Positions 8,737 through 18,849 of a stretch of 64,000 nt of DNA are shown here, piece by piece. How positions within the stretch are numbered: the stretch's first letter is position 1; each line of letters opens with the position of its first letter. The notes beneath the pieces were generated by a model that had not been told where the DNA came from, ran no database searches, and worked only from the letters and a program-made list of their open reading frames with translations. Origin of the DNA: Thainema sp. (GTDB lineage: Bacteria; Cyanobacteriota; Cyanobacteriia; Phormidesmidales; Phormidesmidaceae). The stretch covers positions 19,536-83,535 of the forward strand of contig JBQLZK010000027.1 in assembly GCA_052168235.1 (NCBI GenBank), in the 5' to 3' direction. The position numbers and the translations under genes were made by a program.

Positions 8737-9159
<423 letters not shown>

Positions 9160-10350
9160 TTAGCCGCCCCCCATCAGCACCTGGGCGAGTTCAGTGAACA
9201 GGGGGATTCCCAATGCGATCGCAACTGGCGTGCCGAGAGCTGTGGACGAGCCGATGTAAGCAGAGGGATTTGCTGACGGAATGCCAGCGCGTAACGTAGG
9301 CGGGCCTGAGATGTCTGAGTTGGAGGCAGCAATAACGGCCAAAATTACGACGCCGCCAGGGCTGAATCCTGTGACGTAGTGAGCAACCATGCCGAGCCCA
9401 AAGCCGATGAACCCATGCAACAGCGGTGCCGCGAAGGCATATAGGGCATACCACTGAGCCACCTTACGCAGCTCATTGACCCTTGACCAGGCTTCCATAC
9501 CCATGACCAGCATCAGGATCGACAGTAGACCACGGAAGAGGGGATCGTAGAAGCTCTCAAAGACACTTTCCGGCTGGGTTAGCAGACCTAGCACAATGCC
9601 GAGCAGCAGTGCTGAGAGGGCATAGCCCTGGAGGCTTTCTTTCACAATGGGCCAGATCTTGACCCGTCCGCCTGCGCTACCACTCGACTCGCTGGCAGAC
9701 CTACCTGCGCCACCACCTGGCTCGCCGGAATATCCACCTGCCGTACCGCGTTGGCCACTACCGGGATACCCGCCTGCGGTACCGCCCTGCTCAACAGGAT
9801 ATCCGCCTGCGGTAACGGTCTGCTTGCTAATATAATTCTCATTTTTGAGATACTTTGCGCGCTTCTGCTTACGGGTATAAATGCTAGCTAGGACGATTGC
9901 CGTTACAAGCGCTGGAATATCCATGAAAGGATAGAGTGCAGGAGACCAAGCCTCGTAGAACGTGCCTTGCGCTTCCAGGGTGGATATGGCGGCGGCGAGG
10001 GTAGAGCCACTTACGGCCCCGAACAAGCCCCCAGTCGCCAGGGCATCCACGACTCTGATGCTTGGCAGCCTGGCCAACGTGAAGTTTGCGATAAACACGA
10101 TCAGAATACCAATTCCCACGGAGAACACCGCAGGCAACAGCATCTCCGCCAAATTGGCCTCACGGATCGAAATGCCGCCCTCTAAACCAACTGTAATGAG
10201 CAGCATAAATACGATGAATTTATAGATCGCATCGGGAATTTGCAGTCGGCTACCGAGAGCAGCAATGAACACACCAGCCAGTAGAAAGCCGAGGGTTGGG
10301 GACTGCAACTGCGCCACGAAGCGCTCTAATAAATGGGACAAAAAATCCAC
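9160..10350 (-). CDS. sbtA: Na+-dependent bicarbonate transporter SbtA (downstream copy)
   Basis: MDFLS...QLQSPTL, GAVSGST, DISGPPTLRAGIPSANPSAYIG. Confidence 0.95.
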   Translation of the reverse strand: MDFLSHLLERFVAQLQSPTLGFLLAGVFIAALGSRLQIPDAIYKFIVFMLLITVGLEGGISIREANLAEMLLPAVFSVGIGILIVFIANFTLARLPSIRVVDALATGGLFGAVSGSTLAAAISTLEAQGTFYEAWSPALYPFMDIPALVTAIVLASIYTRKQKRAKYLKNENYISKQTVTAGGYPVEQGGTAGGYPGSGQRGTAGGYSGEPGGGAGRSASESSGSAGGRVKIWPIVKESLQGYALSALLLGIVLGLLTQPESVFESFYDPLFRGLLSILMLVMGMEAWSRVNELRKVAQWYALYAFAAPLLHGFIGFGLGMVAHYVTGFSPGGVVILAVIAASNSDISGPPTLRAGIPSANPSAYIGSSTALGTPVAIALGIPLFTELAQVLMGGG

Positions 10351-10545
10351 GAAAACCTCCTTCCACCTCCTTTAATAAGGGTGATTATTGTGATTCAGTG
10401 AGCTTGAATAAGTTGAACAAAACAAGGGTGAATCAATTCACCTCTACAGCACACCTACCCATAAGAACCTGTTGATAGGGTTTGTTCAGAAATGACTACT
10501 CTCTGAACGGTCTTACAAGGCGATCGCTGTTCTGTATCACCTCAT

Positions 10546-10593
10546 ATAGATTAAAATCTATCAAGGTTTAAATCTTCATGTGTTTAAGTCTAT
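10546..10593. promoter_or_regulatory. NdhR/CcmR-type LysR operator pair
   Basis: ATAG-N8-CTAT at 10546-10561 and ATGT-N8-CTAT at 10578-10593, upstream of sbtA. Confidence 0.75.
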
Positions 10594-10811
10594 CATTTGA
10601 AGCAATGTTTTTTGCGCCTCGGTAGCACAGATTTGAAATAAAATGTCAAATCTAAATCATAAGTTTTTCTTTTGATCTTTGATTTTCAGCATATTTTTGG
10701 CTGATGTGAGATGTGAGTTTGCGATCGCAGATCCACACTCCTGTCTGATATTGTTCATGAGGTTCCTTGTGCTATCTGTGTCAATGTCTCGTGGACAAGA
10801 AATATGGCCAC

Positions 10812-10843
10812 TAAAAAGCCGGGGGCATGCCCCCGGCTTTTTA
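10812..10843 (-). terminator. Intrinsic terminator after upstream sbtB
   Basis: Near-identical to the 8688 hairpin. Confidence 0.8.
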
Positions 10844-10864
10844 AGTCTGTGTCGTCTCGATTTA

Positions 10865-11281
<417 letters not shown>

Positions 11282-12496
11282 TTAGCCACCCGTCATCGCC
11301 TGGGCTAGCCCAACGAAGAGCGGTATGCACAGGGCAATAGCAACTGGTGTGCCGACAGCTGTGGATGCGCCGATATAGGCGGAGGGATTGGCGGAGGGGA
11401 TACCAGCCCGTAACGTGGGCGGCCCTGAGATGTCTGAACTGGAGGCGGCAATGATGGCCAGGAGCGCGACGCCGCCAGGGGTGAACCCCGTAGCGTAGTG
11501 GGCAATCATGCCGAGACCGAAAGCGATAAACCCATGCAGAAAGGGTGCGAAAAAGGCATACAGAGCGTACCACTGGGCCACCTTGCGCAACTCATTGAGT
11601 CGTGCCCAGGCTTCCATTCCCATAACCAACATCAGAATTGAAAGCAGACCGCGAAAGAGAGGCTCGTAGAAGCTTTCAAAAACGCTTTCAGGCCGGGTGA
11701 GGATGCCCAGGGCAAGACCGAGCAGCAGTGCCGATAAAGCAGATCCCTGAAGGCTTTCCTGAACGATGGGCCAGATCTTGACTCGCCCACCTGCGGAACC
11801 GCCTGGTTCGCTGGAATATCCGCCTGAGCTACCGCCGCCGCCGGAATATCCACCTACAGTACCACCCTGGTCAATGGAATATGCGCCTGTGGGAACTGCG
11901 GGAACGGGCTGGTCGATGGGAGTCCCGACTGCAGGAACTGCGGGAACGGGCTGCTTGCCGAGATACTCATCCTTGCTGATATAGGCATCATTTTTATATT
12001 TGTTGCGCTTCTGCTTGCTGGTATAAATGCTGGCCAAGACAATCGCAGTCACGAGTGCTGGAATGTCCATGAAGGGATAAAGTGCGCCAGCCCAGGCCTC
12101 GTATTGAACGCCTTGCCCTTCCAGTACTGTGATGCCAGCGGCGAGGGTAGAGCCACTAACGGCTCCGAACAGGCCCCCGGTCGCCAGGGCATCTACGGTT
12201 CTAATACCCCGTAGCTTAGCTAGCGTGTAGCTGGCAACGAATACAATCAGGATCCCCGTTATCACAGCGAACAGCGCGGGCAGCAACATTTCCGCCAGGT
12301 TGGCATTGCGAATCGCAATGCCGCCGCTCAGGCCAACTTTGATGAGCAGCATGAAGACAATAAACTTATAGATTGCATCGGGAATGGCCAGTTGGCTACC
12401 GAGGGCGGCAATAATGATACCGCCCATCAGAAAACCAAGCGTTGGGGACTGCAACTGCGCCCCGAATTTTGTTAAGAAATCTGACAAGAAATCCAC
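11282..12496 (-). CDS. sbtA: Na+-dependent bicarbonate transporter SbtA (upstream copy)
   Basis: Same motifs as the other copy; GTG start after AAGGAGG. Confidence 0.95.
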   Translation of the reverse strand: MDFLSDFLTKFGAQLQSPTLGFLMGGIIIAALGSQLAIPDAIYKFIVFMLLIKVGLSGGIAIRNANLAEMLLPALFAVITGILIVFVASYTLAKLRGIRTVDALATGGLFGAVSGSTLAAGITVLEGQGVQYEAWAGALYPFMDIPALVTAIVLASIYTSKQKRNKYKNDAYISKDEYLGKQPVPAVPAVGTPIDQPVPAVPTGAYSIDQGGTVGGYSGGGGSSGGYSSEPGGSAGGRVKIWPIVQESLQGSALSALLLGLALGILTRPESVFESFYEPLFRGLLSILMLVMGMEAWARLNELRKVAQWYALYAFFAPFLHGFIAFGLGMIAHYATGFTPGGVALLAIIAASSSDISGPPTLRAGIPSANPSAYIGASTAVGTPVAIALCIPLFVGLAQAMTGG

Positions 12497-12634
12497 TTTG
12501 TAATTCCTCCTTAATTTGGATGTTAGGGGTCAGGACGGCAGCTAAGTATGGCCTCGAATCCTGAGTGGCGGCTCTGCGCATCCGGGTGAGCAGCGAGTTA
12601 AACCGCCACTCTATTGCATCTGCATTCCGGTGCG

Positions 12635-12846
12635 TCATGGGTTGAATGGACGACCCGAAGTATCCAGCACCGAGCGATTAACGTTGAAGCCATTCAGGTT
12701 AAACGCCATCGCATTCACTCCCAGAGCTGCAAACCAGATGCAGACTGCGGGAAACACGGCCAACGAGAGACGAAGATGGGGCTGACTGCGAAAGCCCCTG
12801 CAATGTACAGAAAGTTCCGACAAGTTATGCAAGAGAAATTTGCCAT
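12635..12846 (-). pseudogene. D1 (PsbA)-like fragment or frameshifted small gene in the sbtA leader
   Basis: [30 protein letters not shown] matches D1 helix E and the following lumenal stretch; the ATG with a strong SD (12846) is in another frame. Confidence 0.65.
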
Positions 12847-13065
12847 AAGTACCTCCTTCCGACCCCCAATCAAGAGGAACGGTCAACTTATTTTTGTAGG
12901 TGAACAAACTTTTATGAGCCAGTAAAAACCAGTGAAAAAAGCAGGGGTGAATGAATCACCCCCACAAAACACAGGTTTTGAGAGAGCTCTTAACCAATAG
13001 GCTGTTCGGAGTATCCGCTTCCGAACAGAAGGATCTGCGATCGCATTTGATCCATGTACGAGTCC

Positions 13066-13113
13066 ATAGATTTGACTCTATGTAGAACCGTTTCTACATG
13101 TGCTTAAGTCTAT
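13066..13113. promoter_or_regulatory. NdhR/CcmR-type LysR operator pair
   Basis: ATAG-N8-CTAT at 13066-13081 and ATGT-N8-CTAT at 13098-13113; same spacing as 10546-10593. Confidence 0.75.
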
Positions 13114-13460
13114 CTTAAAAAATCCTGGAATTGAACCCTTTGTAGGGCAAAGTACGAATGGATTGTTAAATTCCAGATATAAGTAAAACTTGTAAATTTG
13201 TAGTTTTGTTATTTTTAGGGCTAATGATCAATTGTGACCAAAGATTTCACTCAATGTTTTGTGCAGCTAAGTCAGTGGAATGAAATTCATCATTTCGACT
13301 AAAAACCTCGCGATGTAAGGCTTTCAGTCTGAAGGATGAAGGCTAGCACTTAAGCGGATCGCTTCAGTTATGGAAGCCCAATATCTGCCCAATAGCTCAA
13401 GAAATACGCTCTTTTATATTTCATTGGATATTTCACCTCGTTCACCTCGTAGATGGCATT

Positions 13461-13654
13461 AGACTTTATCGGAAATTGTTTTGTAGCGCGGCGGAGCCGC
13501 GCTACAAAACAATTTCCAACCCCAAAAACTTTATTTCTCACATCTTGCACCTTGCAAACCAAAGACCCAGAAGGGTGATTTTGCCGCCGCGTCGCGGCGG
13601 CAAAATCACCTCTTCGGGTTTGAGTGCAAGATGTGAGTATTTCCAATAAAGTCT
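13461..13654. mobile_element. MITE-like element family B carrying a nested insertion
   Basis: Ends AGACTTTATCGG/CCAATAAAGTCT; uninterrupted copy at 59138-59225. Confidence 0.8.
13537..13637. mobile_element. Nested MITE-like element
   Basis: 14-bp TIR CTCACATCTTGCAC/GTGCAAGATGTGAG flanked by TATTT direct repeats. Confidence 0.8.
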
Positions 13655-13674
13655 ATTGATTGGGAGGATTAGAC

Positions 13675-14562
13675 ATGGCTGTATTAACCCGATGGATATG
13701 GGTTCTGGCCTCGTTAATGGGCAGTTTGAGCGTATTGGGTGCGTTAGCATTCGAGAATGGGCGCTCAAGTCCTCCGTTTCAAACCTTTGCTGCACCGTGT
13801 GGGCCGCATCAAGAGCAGATTTCTCCTGATGCGGCCCACACGGTGCAGCAGTTGCTGTCTGTAGCGGGTACGAGCGACTGTACTGAAGCCGAGGCGTTGC
13901 TGAATCAGGAGACAGCTCTCGTGCTAGAACGACTACAGCTCAAAGATATTAGCCCTCTAGCTACGCTGGATCAACTGCAGTGGCTTTCGCTTAGCGTTAA
14001 TCAAATTGAAGATGTGTCGCCGCTGCGATCGCTAGCTAACCTGGAGCATTTATTTCTCGATACCAACCAAATTTTTAATCTGCGCCCACTGTTACGATTA
14101 AGTAATACGATTAAGTAACTTGAAAACTTTATCGCTCTATGATGATGAGATTAGCGATATTACGCCCTTAGCTCGGCTGTCTAATCTCCAGCAGCTCTCC
14201 CTCTTCGACAATCAGATTGAGGATATATCGCCGCTAGCCAGCCTTAACTAGCTCGTCAACCTATCGCTGTTTGACAATCAAATTCAGGATCTATCACCGC
14301 TGAGCGGATTGGAACAGCTCCAGTACCTAGCTTTGGGCCGCTCACAACCGTTGCGCCTCTCCAGCAGCTGACTCAGCTATCCTGGCTAGACTTATATCAA
14401 GCTCCGGTAACGGACGCCGAGAAGCTCTCGACGTTGCCGCAACTGGTGCGATTAGATTTGCGCGGCACCGAAATCCGCGATCGCACTTGTCCGGTGCAGC
14501 CTGCAACAGTTTGTCTGTTTTCTCCGCTCGATTCAACGAATTTAGAACCCGCAAAAATATAG
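13675..14562 (+). pseudogene. Internalin-like leucine-rich-repeat protein pseudogene
   Basis: LxxLxLxxNQIxDxSPL repeats continue past a 13-bp duplication (14093-14118), an in-frame TAG (14249-14251) and a frameshift near 14340. Confidence 0.85.
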
Positions 14563-14722: not shown

Positions 14723-14956
14723 TTAATCGACTCCTAACAAAGGAGTTTCAGTGGTTGGAGTTGAGCGAATCTGGTGCTCAGTAGATGAGGGCGGAAACAG
14801 ATTGAATAAAGCAATGGCTAAAATTAACCCAAACCCACAGCCCAGCAAGAAACTCCAGCCATGAGAGGGTTCCAAGGCACACAGCAATCGACGATTGCGC
14901 CCATAAACATGCACAATCCAACCTTCATCGACGATGGGCTCTGCTTGTTTTTTCAT
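14723..14956 (-). CDS. Small hypothetical membrane protein downstream of flv2
   Basis: AAGGAG SD, one hydrophobic helix, 63 bp after flv2. Confidence 0.7.
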   Translation of the reverse strand: MKKQAEPIVDEGWIVHVYGRNRRLLCALEPSHGWSFLLGCGFGLILAIALFNLFPPSSTEHQIRSTPTTETPLLGVD

Positions 14957-15019: not shown

Positions 15020-16780
15020 TCAATACTGGCTGCCGGACTTGCGATGTTGAATGGCAGTTACACCTGAGGGATCAAGCACATTGCCATCGTTGACTGCGGT
15101 ATAAATCAGCCAGTGATCGCCACACTGCATCCAGTTTTGCACCGTACATTCAAGATAGGCAAGCGCCTCTTCGATAATCAGACAGCCGTTTTCAGCCTCT
15201 CGATGGGCAACGTGAGCAAAGGGCTGATCGCCCGGCTGGGGTTGATAGGAAAAATGCCGCCGGATGGTGCGCCCTTCCTTGAGCAGATTGAGCACAAACG
15301 TTGCATTCGGATGCAGCAAATGGCTGGCTGCCGAATCAGCTGCGATCGCAATCATCAGTCCAGGTGGGCTAAATGAAGCTTGGGAAACCCATGAGGTTAG
15401 TGTGCCGCTATGGTGATCGCCTTGCCGAGTCGTGATCACACCGATAGAGCCAATGATCCGGCCAACCGCTTGTTCCGTTCGGTCAGTGTGAGTTTCAGTC
15501 GCAGCTTGACGCGGTAAGCGACGCTTCTTTTGTTTTCTCAACTGCTGGGCAAAGATGGCACCAGCCTGTTGACACATTGCCAACTTGGCTTGGTCAGGAC
15601 TAAACTGAACTCGAATTGTGTCAAACCCAAGCCGATAGTTGTTGATCCGCAGCTTGTCCTCAATTAAATCAATTGCTTCTCCGCTCCAGCCATAGGAGCC
15701 AAATACGCCTGCCAGCTTTGTTTGGATCGCTGAGGAGAGCACAATTCCAAGCGCGGTCTGAATTTGAACGGGCGCATGGCCGCCCAAGGTCGGGGAACCA
15801 ATGATGAAGCCATCGCTGGCCACCACAGCCTCTGCCAGTTCTTCTGGCTCGGTTAGCTCGCAGTTCAGGGCATCAACTGCAATACCAGATTGAATTAACC
15901 CCTGTGCGATCGCATTCGCTAGAGTGGCTGTATTTCCATAAGCCGAGGTATAGATCAGCGCCACTCGTAAGGTCTGCTGTGCCTGCTGCTGGCACCACTG
16001 GCGATAGTCCTTCTGAAAGCGGCTGAGGCTGTAACGGACAAGGGGGCCATGTCCCGGAGCGAGACATTTCACGGGTAAAGGTGCAATCTGATCTAGTGCC
16101 GCTTCGACTTGCTTGGTTTGCGAGGCGTGTAAACAGTCGAAATAGTAGCGGCGATCCACCTCTAATCGTCGCCATTCTTCATCAAACACGGCATCGCCAC
16201 AGACATGTGCCCCGAACAGCTTATCGCTAAAGAGAATTTGGCTGACTGGGTCGTAGGTGCAAAGCCCATCGGGCCAGCGGGGAGTCGGGACGGGCAGCAA
16301 CTGGAGCTGGCGGCCCTGTCCCAGATCCAAATAGCCTTGGGGCGGGCAGATGATATATAGCCGATCGCTCCAGTCTGGAAAAGCCGCTTTTAGAGCTTGA
16401 GCCGCTGGTCGGGAACAGACAATCGCAACTGTCGGTACTCGTTCCACTAAGGCCGCCAATGTCGCCATCCGGTTGGGGTTGACGTGGCTAACAACCACAT
16501 AATCAAGCGTTGTTTCTGCTAAATAGGGCTGTAGGGCTTCTAGGTAAATCTGAGTAAATGATTCGCCCGGTGGATCGATCAGCGCCGTGCGATCGCACCG
16601 AATCAGATACGAGTTTGCTGTCGTTCCTTGGCGGCGGTTGTACTCAACTTCAAACTTGAGCCGCTCCCACGTGCGCGATCGCAAAACAGTGATGTTTGAT
16701 CCAAGCTCTGCAATCTGCACATCGCGAGGACGAGATTCAGCGAGTGGTAGTTGATTTGGAGGAGAGTAGCTTTGGGTCAT
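15020..16780 (-). CDS. flv2: Flavodiiron protein, Flv2 type
   Basis: Non-canonical SHVNPNR metal motif, flavodoxin and flavin reductase domains; follows flv4. Confidence 0.8.
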   Translation of the reverse strand: MTQSYSPPNQLPLAESRPRDVQIAELGSNITVLRSRTWERLKFEVEYNRRQGTTANSYLIRCDRTALIDPPGESFTQIYLEALQPYLAETTLDYVVVSHVNPNRMATLAALVERVPTVAIVCSRPAAQALKAAFPDWSDRLYIICPPQGYLDLGQGRQLQLLPVPTPRWPDGLCTYDPVSQILFSDKLFGAHVCGDAVFDEEWRRLEVDRRYYFDCLHASQTKQVEAALDQIAPLPVKCLAPGHGPLVRYSLSRFQKDYRQWCQQQAQQTLRVALIYTSAYGNTATLANAIAQGLIQSGIAVDALNCELTEPEELAEAVVASDGFIIGSPTLGGHAPVQIQTALGIVLSSAIQTKLAGVFGSYGWSGEAIDLIEDKLRINNYRLGFDTIRVQFSPDQAKLAMCQQAGAIFAQQLRKQKKRRLPRQAATETHTDRTEQAVGRIIGSIGVITTRQGDHHSGTLTSWVSQASFSPPGLMIAIAADSAASHLLHPNATFVLNLLKEGRTIRRHFSYQPQPGDQPFAHVAHREAENGCLIIEEALAYLECTVQNWMQCGDHWLIYTAVNDGNVLDPSGVTAIQHRKSGSQY

Positions 16781-16935
16781 GATCTGTGACTGTAATTGGG
16801 TTTGCTGGGTTGGGTGGGAGGGTAAGAGGTAGGAGGGTGGGAGAGTAGGAGAGTAGGGGCGATATAGAACCGAAATGAGATTGGCACGATTGCAGTGAAT
16901 TGCTCCTACGCCATGATGAACTTGGAGATTTGTAG

Positions 16936-18672
16936 CTAATAATGATTACCAACCTTGCGGTGGTGGACGGCGGTGAGGCCGTCGCGTTTGGCGACGCGTC
17001 CGGTTTGGACAGTGGCGTAGATGACCCAGTGATCGCCGCAGTCGAGCCGACTGGTGATGTGGCATTCCATATAGGCTAGGGCCTGAGCGAGAATTGGCGA
17101 TCCGTTTTGCGCGGCATAGGTGGCAACGCCGTCGAACCGATTGGCTCCGGGTGGAAATCGCTTGAGGAAATGCTTCATCAGCGGCTGATAGTTGCTTTCT
17201 TCCAGCACGTTCAGCACGAAGCTGTCGCCGATGTGCAGCAGGGATTCAATAGCTCGATCTTTGGAAACTGCGATCGCAACTCCGAGCGGTTCAAAGCTGG
17301 CTTGAATCACCCAGGAGGCCAGCATGGCGCTCGACACATCGCCCTTTTTAGCCGTAATCAGATATAAGCCGCTGCTGATTCGGCCCAAGGCGCGGTCGAG
17401 ATTGGAAGCCAGCGATTTGCTTTGCTTAATCGTTTGATCGCGGTTTAGGTACTGCCCTAAATCGATTCCGGCTTCATCACAGAGCTGATCGGTGACTTCG
17501 TTAGGGACTGACTTAATTAGAATCGGCGGAAAGGCTTCCCGCAAGCCCAACTCCTGAAGCTGTGCCCGCAGCGGATAGATCGGTTCATCCTGGCCACCCC
17601 CTGTTTCAAATAGGCCGAATGTCTGTTTATTCGACACGGTGGCTAGTATAGTTCCCAAACCCGCATGGGTAGAGGTTTGTGAGGTTTGGGGCGGCATCCC
17701 CATCACAATGCCCGCCGCGCAGTTGACAAGTTCGCGAATTTCGTGCGGATCGGCCACGGATAAATCCACCAGTTCAACTGCAATCCCTGTTTTAGCAATG
17801 CCGTCCGCTACCGCCCGCACAATGCGATCGCTATAGCCATACTCATCGGTGTAGAACAGCGCCACAAAGGTTTCGGCCTGTGCCTGGTTTTGGCTCCAGG
17901 TGCGGTAGCGCTCCACCCAGTCAGTGCGATGATGCTGCAAAAGCGGCCCGTGCCCAGTGGCAATCAAATCTACGGTAAACGGGTCAATCCGCTTCAGCGC
18001 CATCAGCACCGAGCGGGCGTTTGGCCCCATCAGGCAGTCATAGTAATACTGAAAGTCCGTCTCTAGCAGATGCGGCATTTCATCAAACAGACAATCATCG
18101 CAGTAGTGCATACCAAACACATCGCAGGTAAATAGCACCTGCGTCCCGGTGTCGTAGGTGAAAATTGTGTCTGGCCAGTGCAAATTGGGGGCAGAAACAA
18201 ACTCTAGCTTGTGCCCATTGCCCAAATCGAGCGACATGCCGCTCTTCACCACTAACGAGGTAAAGGGCTGATGCACCATGTTTTCTAAAAACTGAATGGC
18301 GACTTTCGAGCCAACCACCGTAATTTGGGGAGCTTGTTCTAAAATCTCTCGCACTAACCCGCTGTGATCCGGCTCCGTGTGATTCACAATCAGGTAATCC
18401 AGCTCGGCCAAATTGACTTGTTCGGTCAAACAACTGAGATAGAGATCCTGAAACTTGCGGTGGGACGTGTCTACCAGCGCCGTTTTCTCACCGCGAATCA
18501 GAAATGAGTTATAGGTCGTGCCATTCTGTAGCTCAAATTCAATATCAAAGCGATCGCGATCCCAATCGAGACAGCGAATGGCCAAAGTATCAGATGCGAT
18601 CGCAGCGGTTTGCAGCGTCAGGCGTCCGGTTGGACGCGGTGATTGAGTGGGGGAATCAACCAGTACAACCAT
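16936..18672 (-). CDS. flv4: Flavodiiron protein, Flv4 type
   Basis: IRCLDWDRDRFDIEFEL, canonical NHTEPDH diiron motif, C-terminal HHRKVGNHY. Confidence 0.82.
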   Translation of the reverse strand: MVVLVDSPTQSPRPTGRLTLQTAAIASDTLAIRCLDWDRDRFDIEFELQNGTTYNSFLIRGEKTALVDTSHRKFQDLYLSCLTEQVNLAELDYLIVNHTEPDHSGLVREILEQAPQITVVGSKVAIQFLENMVHQPFTSLVVKSGMSLDLGNGHKLEFVSAPNLHWPDTIFTYDTGTQVLFTCDVFGMHYCDDCLFDEMPHLLETDFQYYYDCLMGPNARSVLMALKRIDPFTVDLIATGHGPLLQHHRTDWVERYRTWSQNQAQAETFVALFYTDEYGYSDRIVRAVADGIAKTGIAVELVDLSVADPHEIRELVNCAAGIVMGMPPQTSQTSTHAGLGTILATVSNKQTFGLFETGGGQDEPIYPLRAQLQELGLREAFPPILIKSVPNEVTDQLCDEAGIDLGQYLNRDQTIKQSKSLASNLDRALGRISSGLYLITAKKGDVSSAMLASWVIQASFEPLGVAIAVSKDRAIESLLHIGDSFVLNVLEESNYQPLMKHFLKRFPPGANRFDGVATYAAQNGSPILAQALAYMECHITSRLDCGDHWVIYATVQTGRVAKRDGLTAVHHRKVGNHY

Positions 18673-18849
18673 GAAAACAGCCTCACTAAACAACGGAATC
18701 GTTAATTGAATCTGTTTTTATGGTGAACTGCATACCAACCAAAGTAAAATGTCAATTCTGAAATTGATTTATAAACTATTGATATATTTAGTTGTTTTTT
18801 GATTAGTCCAGATTATTCTCAATGGATGGTGTTGAATAATTCACGTAAA

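Follow-up and report, generated by a model that had tools for sequence, protein, structure and literature searches.

SbtC, an 80 aa protein with two beta-strands and a central transmembrane helix, has been described as encoded upstream of sbtAB and expressed from its own low-CO2-induced promoter (10.1101/2025.11.25.690420), and psbA is not mentioned in the sections of that preprint on which we draw. The parts of a second report used here describe a "bicarbonate pump associated structure" upstream of sbtA that overlaps the sbtA Shine-Dalgarno (SD) site, and state that CcmR represses sbtA (PMC12873609, NAR 2026). As described there, the structure concerns the last ~40 nt before sbtA and not a psbA-derived stretch such as the one considered below.

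The window, by which we mean the whole stretch of 64,000 nt of Thainema sp. DNA that was analysed (contig JBQLZK010000027.1, positions 19536 to 83535), has an sbtA gene whose long leader contains an open reading frame resembling part of the photosystem II (PSII) protein D1. The first-pass annotation of this DNA had offered two readings of that frame: a frameshifted relic of a chimeric gene, or a D1-derived membrane micro-protein. Based on the homology, synteny, frame decay and missing coding signature that we observed, we put the probability at roughly 80% that the D1-like stretch is a real, non-protein-coding fossil of the 3' third of psbA, lying within a chimeric sbtA leader.

The sbtA locus and its chimeric leader

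Two tandem sbtA-sbtB pairs are located on the minus strand of the window: sbtA1 (12496-11282) with sbtB1 (11197-10865), and sbtA2 (10350-9160) with sbtB2, which ends at 8737. The sbtA genes matched the Pfam family Sbt_1 (E ~1e-90) and the sbtB genes the family P-II (E ~1e-15). The two sbtA copies (9160-12496, minus strand) share 79% identity and belong to separate SbtA subclades, so the pair is not a recent duplication; sbtA1 is closest to that of Nodosilinea nodulosa PCC 7104, and sbtA2 to that of a Phormidesmidales MAG. An extra segment had been claimed for the leader of the upstream copy only, and this is what we found, as the leader of the second copy runs straight from the same ribosome binding site (RBS) into sbtA. 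The features of the sbtA1 region, including a probable sbtC gene discussed below, are as follows.

14723-14956, minus strand: probable sbtC, 77 aa, separate from the relic; largest conserved small-ORF cluster upstream of sbtA, with an AlphaFold model.
12862-13081, minus strand: upstream "B-type" sbtA leader with palindromic box and hairpins (12 sequences, 33 predicted pairs, 7 of them changed on both sides).
12844-12860, minus strand: vestigial sbtA-type SD and start (GGAAGGAGG at 12860-12852, ATG at 12846-12844).
12776-12843, minus strand: ~70-nt piece that separates the vestigial start codon from the D1 relic, conserved at every relic locus.
12641-12775, minus strand: psbA (D1) relic, D1 271-315; the frame is open here and ends at TGA 12637-12635 (phmmer, TIGR01151 and nucleotide similarity).
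12497-12640, minus strand: downstream "A-type" sbtA 5'UTR element (blastn conservation; hairpin and predicted SD-pairing helix).
11282-12496, minus strand: sbtA1, 404 aa, the gene served by the chimeric leader (Pfam Sbt_1, E 2e-90).

The B-type leader includes a palindromic box, ATAG-N8-CTAT, at 13081-13066, with a second box at 13113-13098, and also has three hairpins, the second terminator-like with a T-run (12965-12932) and the third proximal to the RBS. The ATAG-N8-CTAT motif matches the NdhR/CcmR operator and may represent one. In both sbtA copies (12932-13113 and 10360-10600, minus strand) this leader shows family-wide conservation, and it looks like an attenuator or riboswitch-style element.

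The segment 13081-12844 aligned with the leader of sbtA2 (10585-10348) and with that of sbtA in six other genomes. Common to the B-type leaders were the ATAG-N8-CTAT box, the three hairpins in the order given above, the T-run, the sequence GGAAGGAGG and the start codon. The same GGAAGGAGG had been singled out in the first-pass annotation as the best RBS of the region, preceding an ATG at 12846 that opens a 43-aa ORF in a frame other than that of D1, and had been likened to the RBS of the other sbtA. The site and its ORF are as described, and the likeness proved to be positional homology: this RBS and start correspond to those that drive sbtA directly at 10350 in the window and at loci L013, L017-L020 and L026. 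Because the start codon of the same leader opens sbtA itself in the B-type loci, the alignment indicates that the RBS and ATG 12846 are the ancestral, now orphaned, ribosome site and start of an sbtA gene. As the same leader drives sbtA directly elsewhere, the sbtA1 leader is chimeric, and it is made up of an old sbtA leader with its start, ~70 nt, the psbA 3' relic and a widely conserved sbtA 5'UTR. The ~70-nt piece had no nucleotide similarity above shuffles to psbA or to the 5' coding sequence of sbtA, and tblastn searches with its Tat-like peptides identified no donor in this genome.

The A-type element at the downstream end of the leader contains the RBS of sbtA1 itself (12510-12500). Blastn matches to 12640-12497 were found in 43 sbtA loci from many cyanobacterial orders, including an Okeania (84% identity over 142 nt) and a Calothrix (82% over 138 nt). 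Across distant orders (Okeania, Calothrix, Lyngbya PCC 8106, Mastigocoleus) identity was 78-84% over ~140 nt. Despite this high sequence conservation, the predicted consensus structure was sparse; it contained one hairpin, for which one sequence provided support through a triple compensatory change, and a predicted helix that pairs CCGUCCU with the sbtA1 SD site. The A-type element thus likewise has a predicted helix overlapping the SD site, a likeness to the bicarbonate pump associated structure that we draw from the text description in parts of that report (PMC12873609). Two contigs labelled as Chloroflexota MAGs (L082 and L092) also carried a cyanobacterial-type sbtA with a cyanobacterial A-type leader, and these labels probably reflect binning contamination.

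Several further features were present upstream of the sbtA1 leader. The spacer upstream of the sbtA1 promoter contains two long perfect palindromes of ~37 and ~47 nt (13470-13615, minus strand), which look like repetitive extragenic hairpin elements. Between the leader and the probable sbtC lies a leucine-rich-repeat gene (13660-14251, plus strand) that an in-frame stop divides into two ORFs (13660-14118 and 14120-14251). It is probably a pseudogene, and antisense ORFs like these lie upstream of sbtA in other genomes too.

A probable sbtC gene distinct from the D1-like frame

The possibility that the D1-like fragment might be related to SbtC had been raised in the first-pass annotation. When the small ORFs upstream of 80 named sbtA genes were clustered, a single family dominated, with members at 23 of the 80 loci; the one in the window, the ORF 14956-14723, would normally go unannotated. 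An AlphaFold model of this ORF (16 sequences) placed two strands (residues 13-17 and 24-28) ahead of a helix (30-53), in keeping with the published description of SbtC; its mean pLDDT was 66, and values in the core were 87-95. Directly upstream of it are two adjoining flavodiiron-type genes (15020-18693, minus strand) with ODP/metallo-beta-lactamase, flavodoxin and flavin reductase domains, which together with the probable sbtC form a low-CO2-style gene neighbourhood. Based on the published description and the gene neighbourhood, the modelled product of this ORF is probably SbtC. What the relic shares with SbtC is its small size and its place upstream of sbtA in a low-CO2 locus; the sequences are unrelated, with a BLASTP E of 4.3 between the relic and the SbtC-like ORF, and a probability of 0.4% when the SbtC-like family was compared to D1 by hhalign.

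Homology of the D1-like frame

The minus-strand ORF 12907..12635 encodes 90 aa and reads as the first-pass annotation had quoted it. In a phmmer search against PDB chains, 53 of its 56 matches at E<=10 were to PSII D1/PsbA (best E 1.6e-15), and it matched the NCBIfam psbA model TIGR01151 with an E of 3.1e-14, at model positions 240/271-314 only. The score of 52.4 bits, against a curated cut-off of 596, identifies the D1-like stretch as a fragment. A Pfam search with the 90-aa ORF had no match at E<=1.

The two parts of the ORF behaved differently when searched separately. The last 48 aa (12781-12635) alone matched D1 271-315 with an E of 2.3e-14, and all 53 of the matches were D1. The first 42 aa (12907-12782) alone matched no D1, and both of their matches at E<=10 were cellulose synthase. 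HMMER had aligned this first part back to D1 238, an extension that we rejected since it was unsupported when the part was searched alone; the residues GSEGGTY, which HMMER laid on D1 GQEEETY, are the leader RBS read in another frame. At the nucleotide level, 12754-12672 was the sole stretch resembling the psbA genes of this genome (76-79% identity over 59-70 nt), and scores against psbA were 22-40 in all eight relic copies compared to a shuffle maximum of 16.

Together, these searches place the D1 homology at 12775-12641 on the minus strand (D1 residues 271-315), within the stretch 12778-12635 for which it had been claimed. From IWF to GR we counted by hand ~20 of 30 residues identical to the standard D1 of this genome, close to the earlier estimate of about 21. 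The position of His272, which we take to be a non-haem iron ligand of D1, reads Arg in this window as had been reported, and His is retained there in several orthologous relics. An ATG at 12638 does overlap the stop of the D1-like frame.

The relic is homologous to transmembrane helix E of functional D1 and the lumenal stretch that follows, and in orthologous relics the homology extends up to ~350. In contrast to functional D1, a protein of ~344-360 aa, it represents the 3' third only and has no start of its own; it sits within the leader of another gene, and its frames are broken in relatives. The relic was 57-63% identical to each of the three D1 types of this genome (standard, second copy and divergent ChlF-like), so it cannot be assigned to a D1 clade. 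An origin from an atypical D1 clade was considered because the whole ORF ranked far-red D1 chains first, and was dropped as the D1 part alone did not. Other D1 scraps in the genome were short tblastn matches seemingly at or near contig ends, and we took them to be assembly breaks in multi-copy psbA.

A separate observation concerns the psbA genes of this genome. Contig C19 of G000 has two psbA paralogues 6 kb apart (loci L002 and L005), one of which is divergent, with 69% identity to standard D1 and 618 bits on the psbA model. The divergent copy is changed at positions that we take to be Mn-cluster ligands, and its likeness to a chlorophyll f synthase type suggests a far-red light gene cluster.

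Orthologous relics and synteny

The presence of syntenic homologues was one of the checks proposed for this locus, and we scanned 173 genomes of the family with 12870-12630 as the query. Relic-length matches were found in eight genomes from six genera, and two more matched the first ~80 nt only. In all ten, sbtA was directly downstream on the same strand (12 loci were examined). Five further genomes matched an 83-91-nt psbA-like core only; the two of these that were examined had no adjoining sbtA and were taken to be ordinary psbA genes. Among 80 named sbtA loci across cyanobacteria, one had the relic (Lyngbya sp. CCY1209, L062) and two had its 5' part only, and apart from the L062 relic none had a D1-like sequence within 2.5 kb that would place psbA next to sbtA. 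Named neighbours included Nodosilinea, Leptolyngbya, Vasconcelosia, Almyronema and similar filamentous forms. Nine copies are considered below, together with one relative represented by RNA contigs.

The orthologous pieces covered different parts of psbA. On TIGR01151, the relic of G076 matched positions 270-319 (E 1e-15) and that of G066 matched 289-350 (E 7e-19), and the aligned copies, which together span D1 ~270-350, show an ancestral insert reaching from D1 ~270 to the C-terminus, the 3' third of psbA. Loss from the 3' side differs by lineage; the copy in this window extends to about D1 315, and the core has been deleted in G187, G145/L051, G014 and L111. As in bacterial intergenic gene relics, what is present is a truncated and frame-decayed copy of a functional gene that lacks its own start. 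It differs from them in having been retained in at least six genera, always in the same position in a regulated leader and with 71-84% nucleotide identity.

The relic-bearing sbtA genes were scattered on the SbtA tree, where eight rows need eight changes, at least five of them forced by well-supported branches of what was a quick tree. The history of the locus therefore involves recombination, and leader modules have evidently recombined onto different sbtA paralogues. This recombination weakens a single-origin story and makes the neighbouring sbtA an imperfect neutral yardstick, a point that bears on the comparisons below.

The leader in RNA libraries

Three metatranscriptome runs (X14, X15 and X18) from one biofilm study yielded contigs of a relative with ~90% identity. 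The X15 contig (1800 nt) aligns to 12300-12566 and 12653-13136, and the X18 contig (784 nt) to 12346-12566 and 12653-13072; both have 116 different letters in place of the 86 between 12566 and 12653. These contigs extend without a break from within sbtA across the relic, as far as 13136 and 13072, respectively, and the X14 contigs covered 12784-13213. The stretch 12572-12639, which had no cover in the RNA runs, reflects the segment replaced in the relative and is not a gap in transcription. The relic of this relative lacks 1 nt at 12783 and 2 nt at 12756, a total of 3 nt, so that the D1 frame is restored after ~9 codons. Contigs of this kind in RNA libraries are what a long leader co-transcribed with sbtA would give, and as they carry neither strand, transcript ends nor expression level, and RNA libraries may contain DNA, they fall short of proof of co-transcription.

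Conservation of the relic and a possible role as RNA

The relic and its 5' piece (12846-12672, ~175 nt) were 71-84% identical between genomes, with a median of 78%. Identity at four-fold degenerate sites of sbtA from the same loci was 45-72%, with a median of 60%. The relic was the more conserved of the two in 28 of 28 pairs, with a median ratio of Jukes-Cantor (JC) distances of 0.46, and in distant pairs its identity was 0.71-0.84 versus 0.47-0.65 for the rest of the upstream leader. The relic is thus better conserved than a neutral fossil should be, which counts against a plain fossil reading, and its conservation above the sbtA four-fold sites makes a role as leader RNA possible.

Such a role would mean that the relic and the preceding 70 nt have been exapted as a leader RNA with a sequence-specific cis function in the sbtA1 mRNA. 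A pyrimidine-rich stretch (12770-12758) might pair with the vestigial SD and the D1 core might form a long hairpin, and the effect could be to silence the old start or to tune the stability or translation of the mRNA. We consider this proposal less likely than not; it would refine the fossil explanation rather than exclude it. In addition to the conservation in 28 of 28 pairs and in distant pairs, it draws on the RNAalifold consensus of eight copies, which had 60 pairs with 91.4% of cells paired, a level reached by 1 of 500 shuffles, although the pairs were counted on the very alignment that had yielded the structure. Changes on both sides were found at 8 of the 60 pairs, a number reached by 23 of 500 shuffles and likewise counted on the alignment that gave the structure. 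The anti-SD helix (helix 2) was retained in nearly all copies (93.7% of cells paired), and the fold of the G000 leader had a z of -3.7 relative to shuffles.

Other results speak against an RNA function. The covariation term was small (-1.35 kcal/mol), with most of the support coming from G-U wobble changes, and a search of 10200-13400 against Rfam had no relevant match at E<=10. Several lineages have dropped the core yet kept sbtA, and the B-type loci work without a relic. Recombination of leader modules could also make the relic look younger than the sbtA with which it was compared. The stronger claim, that a psbA coding fragment was recruited into the regulatory leader RNA of sbtA and has been under selection at the RNA level in at least six genera, we consider rather doubtful; examples of what it would do are pairing with and silencing the vestigial ribosome site, or shaping the stability of a low-CO2-induced mRNA.

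Coding potential of the leader

If the vestigial RBS and ATG 12846 are still in use, they would drive a leader peptide of 22-45 codons resembling a Tat signal, whose translation would control the downstream leader. The 43-aa ORF had been compared in the first-pass annotation to a decayed Tat signal, an impression that is understandable because the orthologue consensus, ..SRMTRRNFLYTAGA.., does resemble one. In this window the pair is CR and not RR, the ORF has 43 codons, and no donor was found in this genome; CR, HW or RW replaced RR in several copies, this window included. The SD core AAGGAGG was invariant in all eight aligned copies, most copies had an ATG in that frame (the first or an internal one), and G001 and G177 keep an ATG-led ORF by means of a +3 insertion and a compensating shift.

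The frame of ATG 12846 has nevertheless decayed among orthologues. In 4 of 10 relic-type loci ATA takes the place of the first ATG, the frame lacks any ATG in G192, and the position of the stop varies, from 22 to 43 codons. Variable sites in the 5' piece before the core were spread 31/31/31 over the codon phases (eight copies), and pN/pS for this frame was 0.73-0.82, not below that of other frames. Based on these results, we regard a regulatory leader peptide as unlikely.

The D1 frame was examined in the same way. It is open in five of the nine full copies and contains frameshifts or in-frame stops in the other four (G001, G066, G177 and G195). Variable sites at codon positions 1, 2 and 3 of the core numbered 25, 30 and 36 (eight copies). 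A first look at three intact copies gave a dN/dS of 0.29-0.45, a signal that was removed by control frames. With pN/pS summed over all pairs and two out-of-frame readings as controls, the D1 frame had a value of 0.47 versus 0.55 and 0.91 in the other frames for four intact copies, and 0.63 versus 0.75 and 0.78 for nine copies. By these measures the D1 frame is on a par with its out-of-frame controls and has no coding signature. It also had neither a conserved start nor a start codon served by an RBS, the sole RBS being that of ATG 12846 in another frame. In a collection of 5.8 billion proteins, no protein of 49-158 aa shared words with the 90-aa ORF.

These results bear directly on the proposal of a D1-derived membrane micro-protein, in which the 90-aa frame or a shorter one would be translated and a helix-E-like segment would act with SbtA in the membrane. 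In its favor, an open frame is present in G000 and in five of nine copies, the hydrophobic helix-E sequence is retained, and the region is present in RNA-library contigs. Against this stand the broken frame in four of nine copies, the lack of an ATG or GTG with an RBS, the lack of periodicity and of a frame-specific pN/pS signal, the loss of the core in other lineages, the lack of near-length homologues in the protein collection, and Arg in place of the iron-ligand His in this genome. We therefore consider a functional micro-protein very improbable. The other reading of the first-pass annotation, that of a frameshifted relic of a chimeric gene, is supported by what we found, namely the 3' third of psbA behind a duplicated sbtA-type leader, RBS and start, together with frameshifts and stops in the orthologues.

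That a real chimeric gene merely appears broken through an assembly or sequencing artefact, as might be suspected of a 205-contig draft genome, is effectively refuted by independent assemblies, since the same architecture occurs with independent differences in nine other assemblies and in contigs from public runs. In addition, contigs from a public DNA run (X1, possibly the source sample and so not independent) matched 12742-13268 and 12300-12659 without indels, and nothing there suggests an assembly frameshift.

Proposed history of the locus

The reading that we favor, a psbA fossil in a chimeric leader, can be set out as a series of events, although we infer their order, as well as co-transcription and the lack of a protein product. 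In an ancestor within the family, whose named relatives are Nodosilinea/Leptolyngbya-type filamentous cyanobacteria, a rearrangement would have joined three parts: (i) a CcmR/NdhR-type sbtA promoter with its leader, SD site and start codon; (ii) a ~70-nt piece followed by psbA from codon ~270 onward to its end; and (iii) a second sbtA gene, preceded by a short leader of its own. Subsequent deletions and exchanges of leaders would then have trimmed the relic differently in each lineage, such that in this window it stops at D1 ~315 and gives way to the widespread A-type sbtA 5'UTR. Today the relic is most likely transcribed with sbtA as part of a leader RNA of ~600 nt and yields no functional protein. 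SbtA1 would be translated from its own RBS, with which the surrounding A-type element may pair.

Implications

For annotation, these findings mean that the D1-like ORF should not be called a gene or a new type of D1. It should also not be confused with SbtC, whose probable gene is 2 kb upstream. The sbtA leaders of this group are mosaics of at least three conserved modules that have been swapped between paralogues, and this matters for work that relies on these promoters and 5'UTRs for SbtA expression in engineered strains or plants. Should the conservation of the relic above neutral levels reflect function, the locus would offer a clear case of a piece of coding sequence put to new use as regulatory RNA in the carbon-concentrating mechanism.
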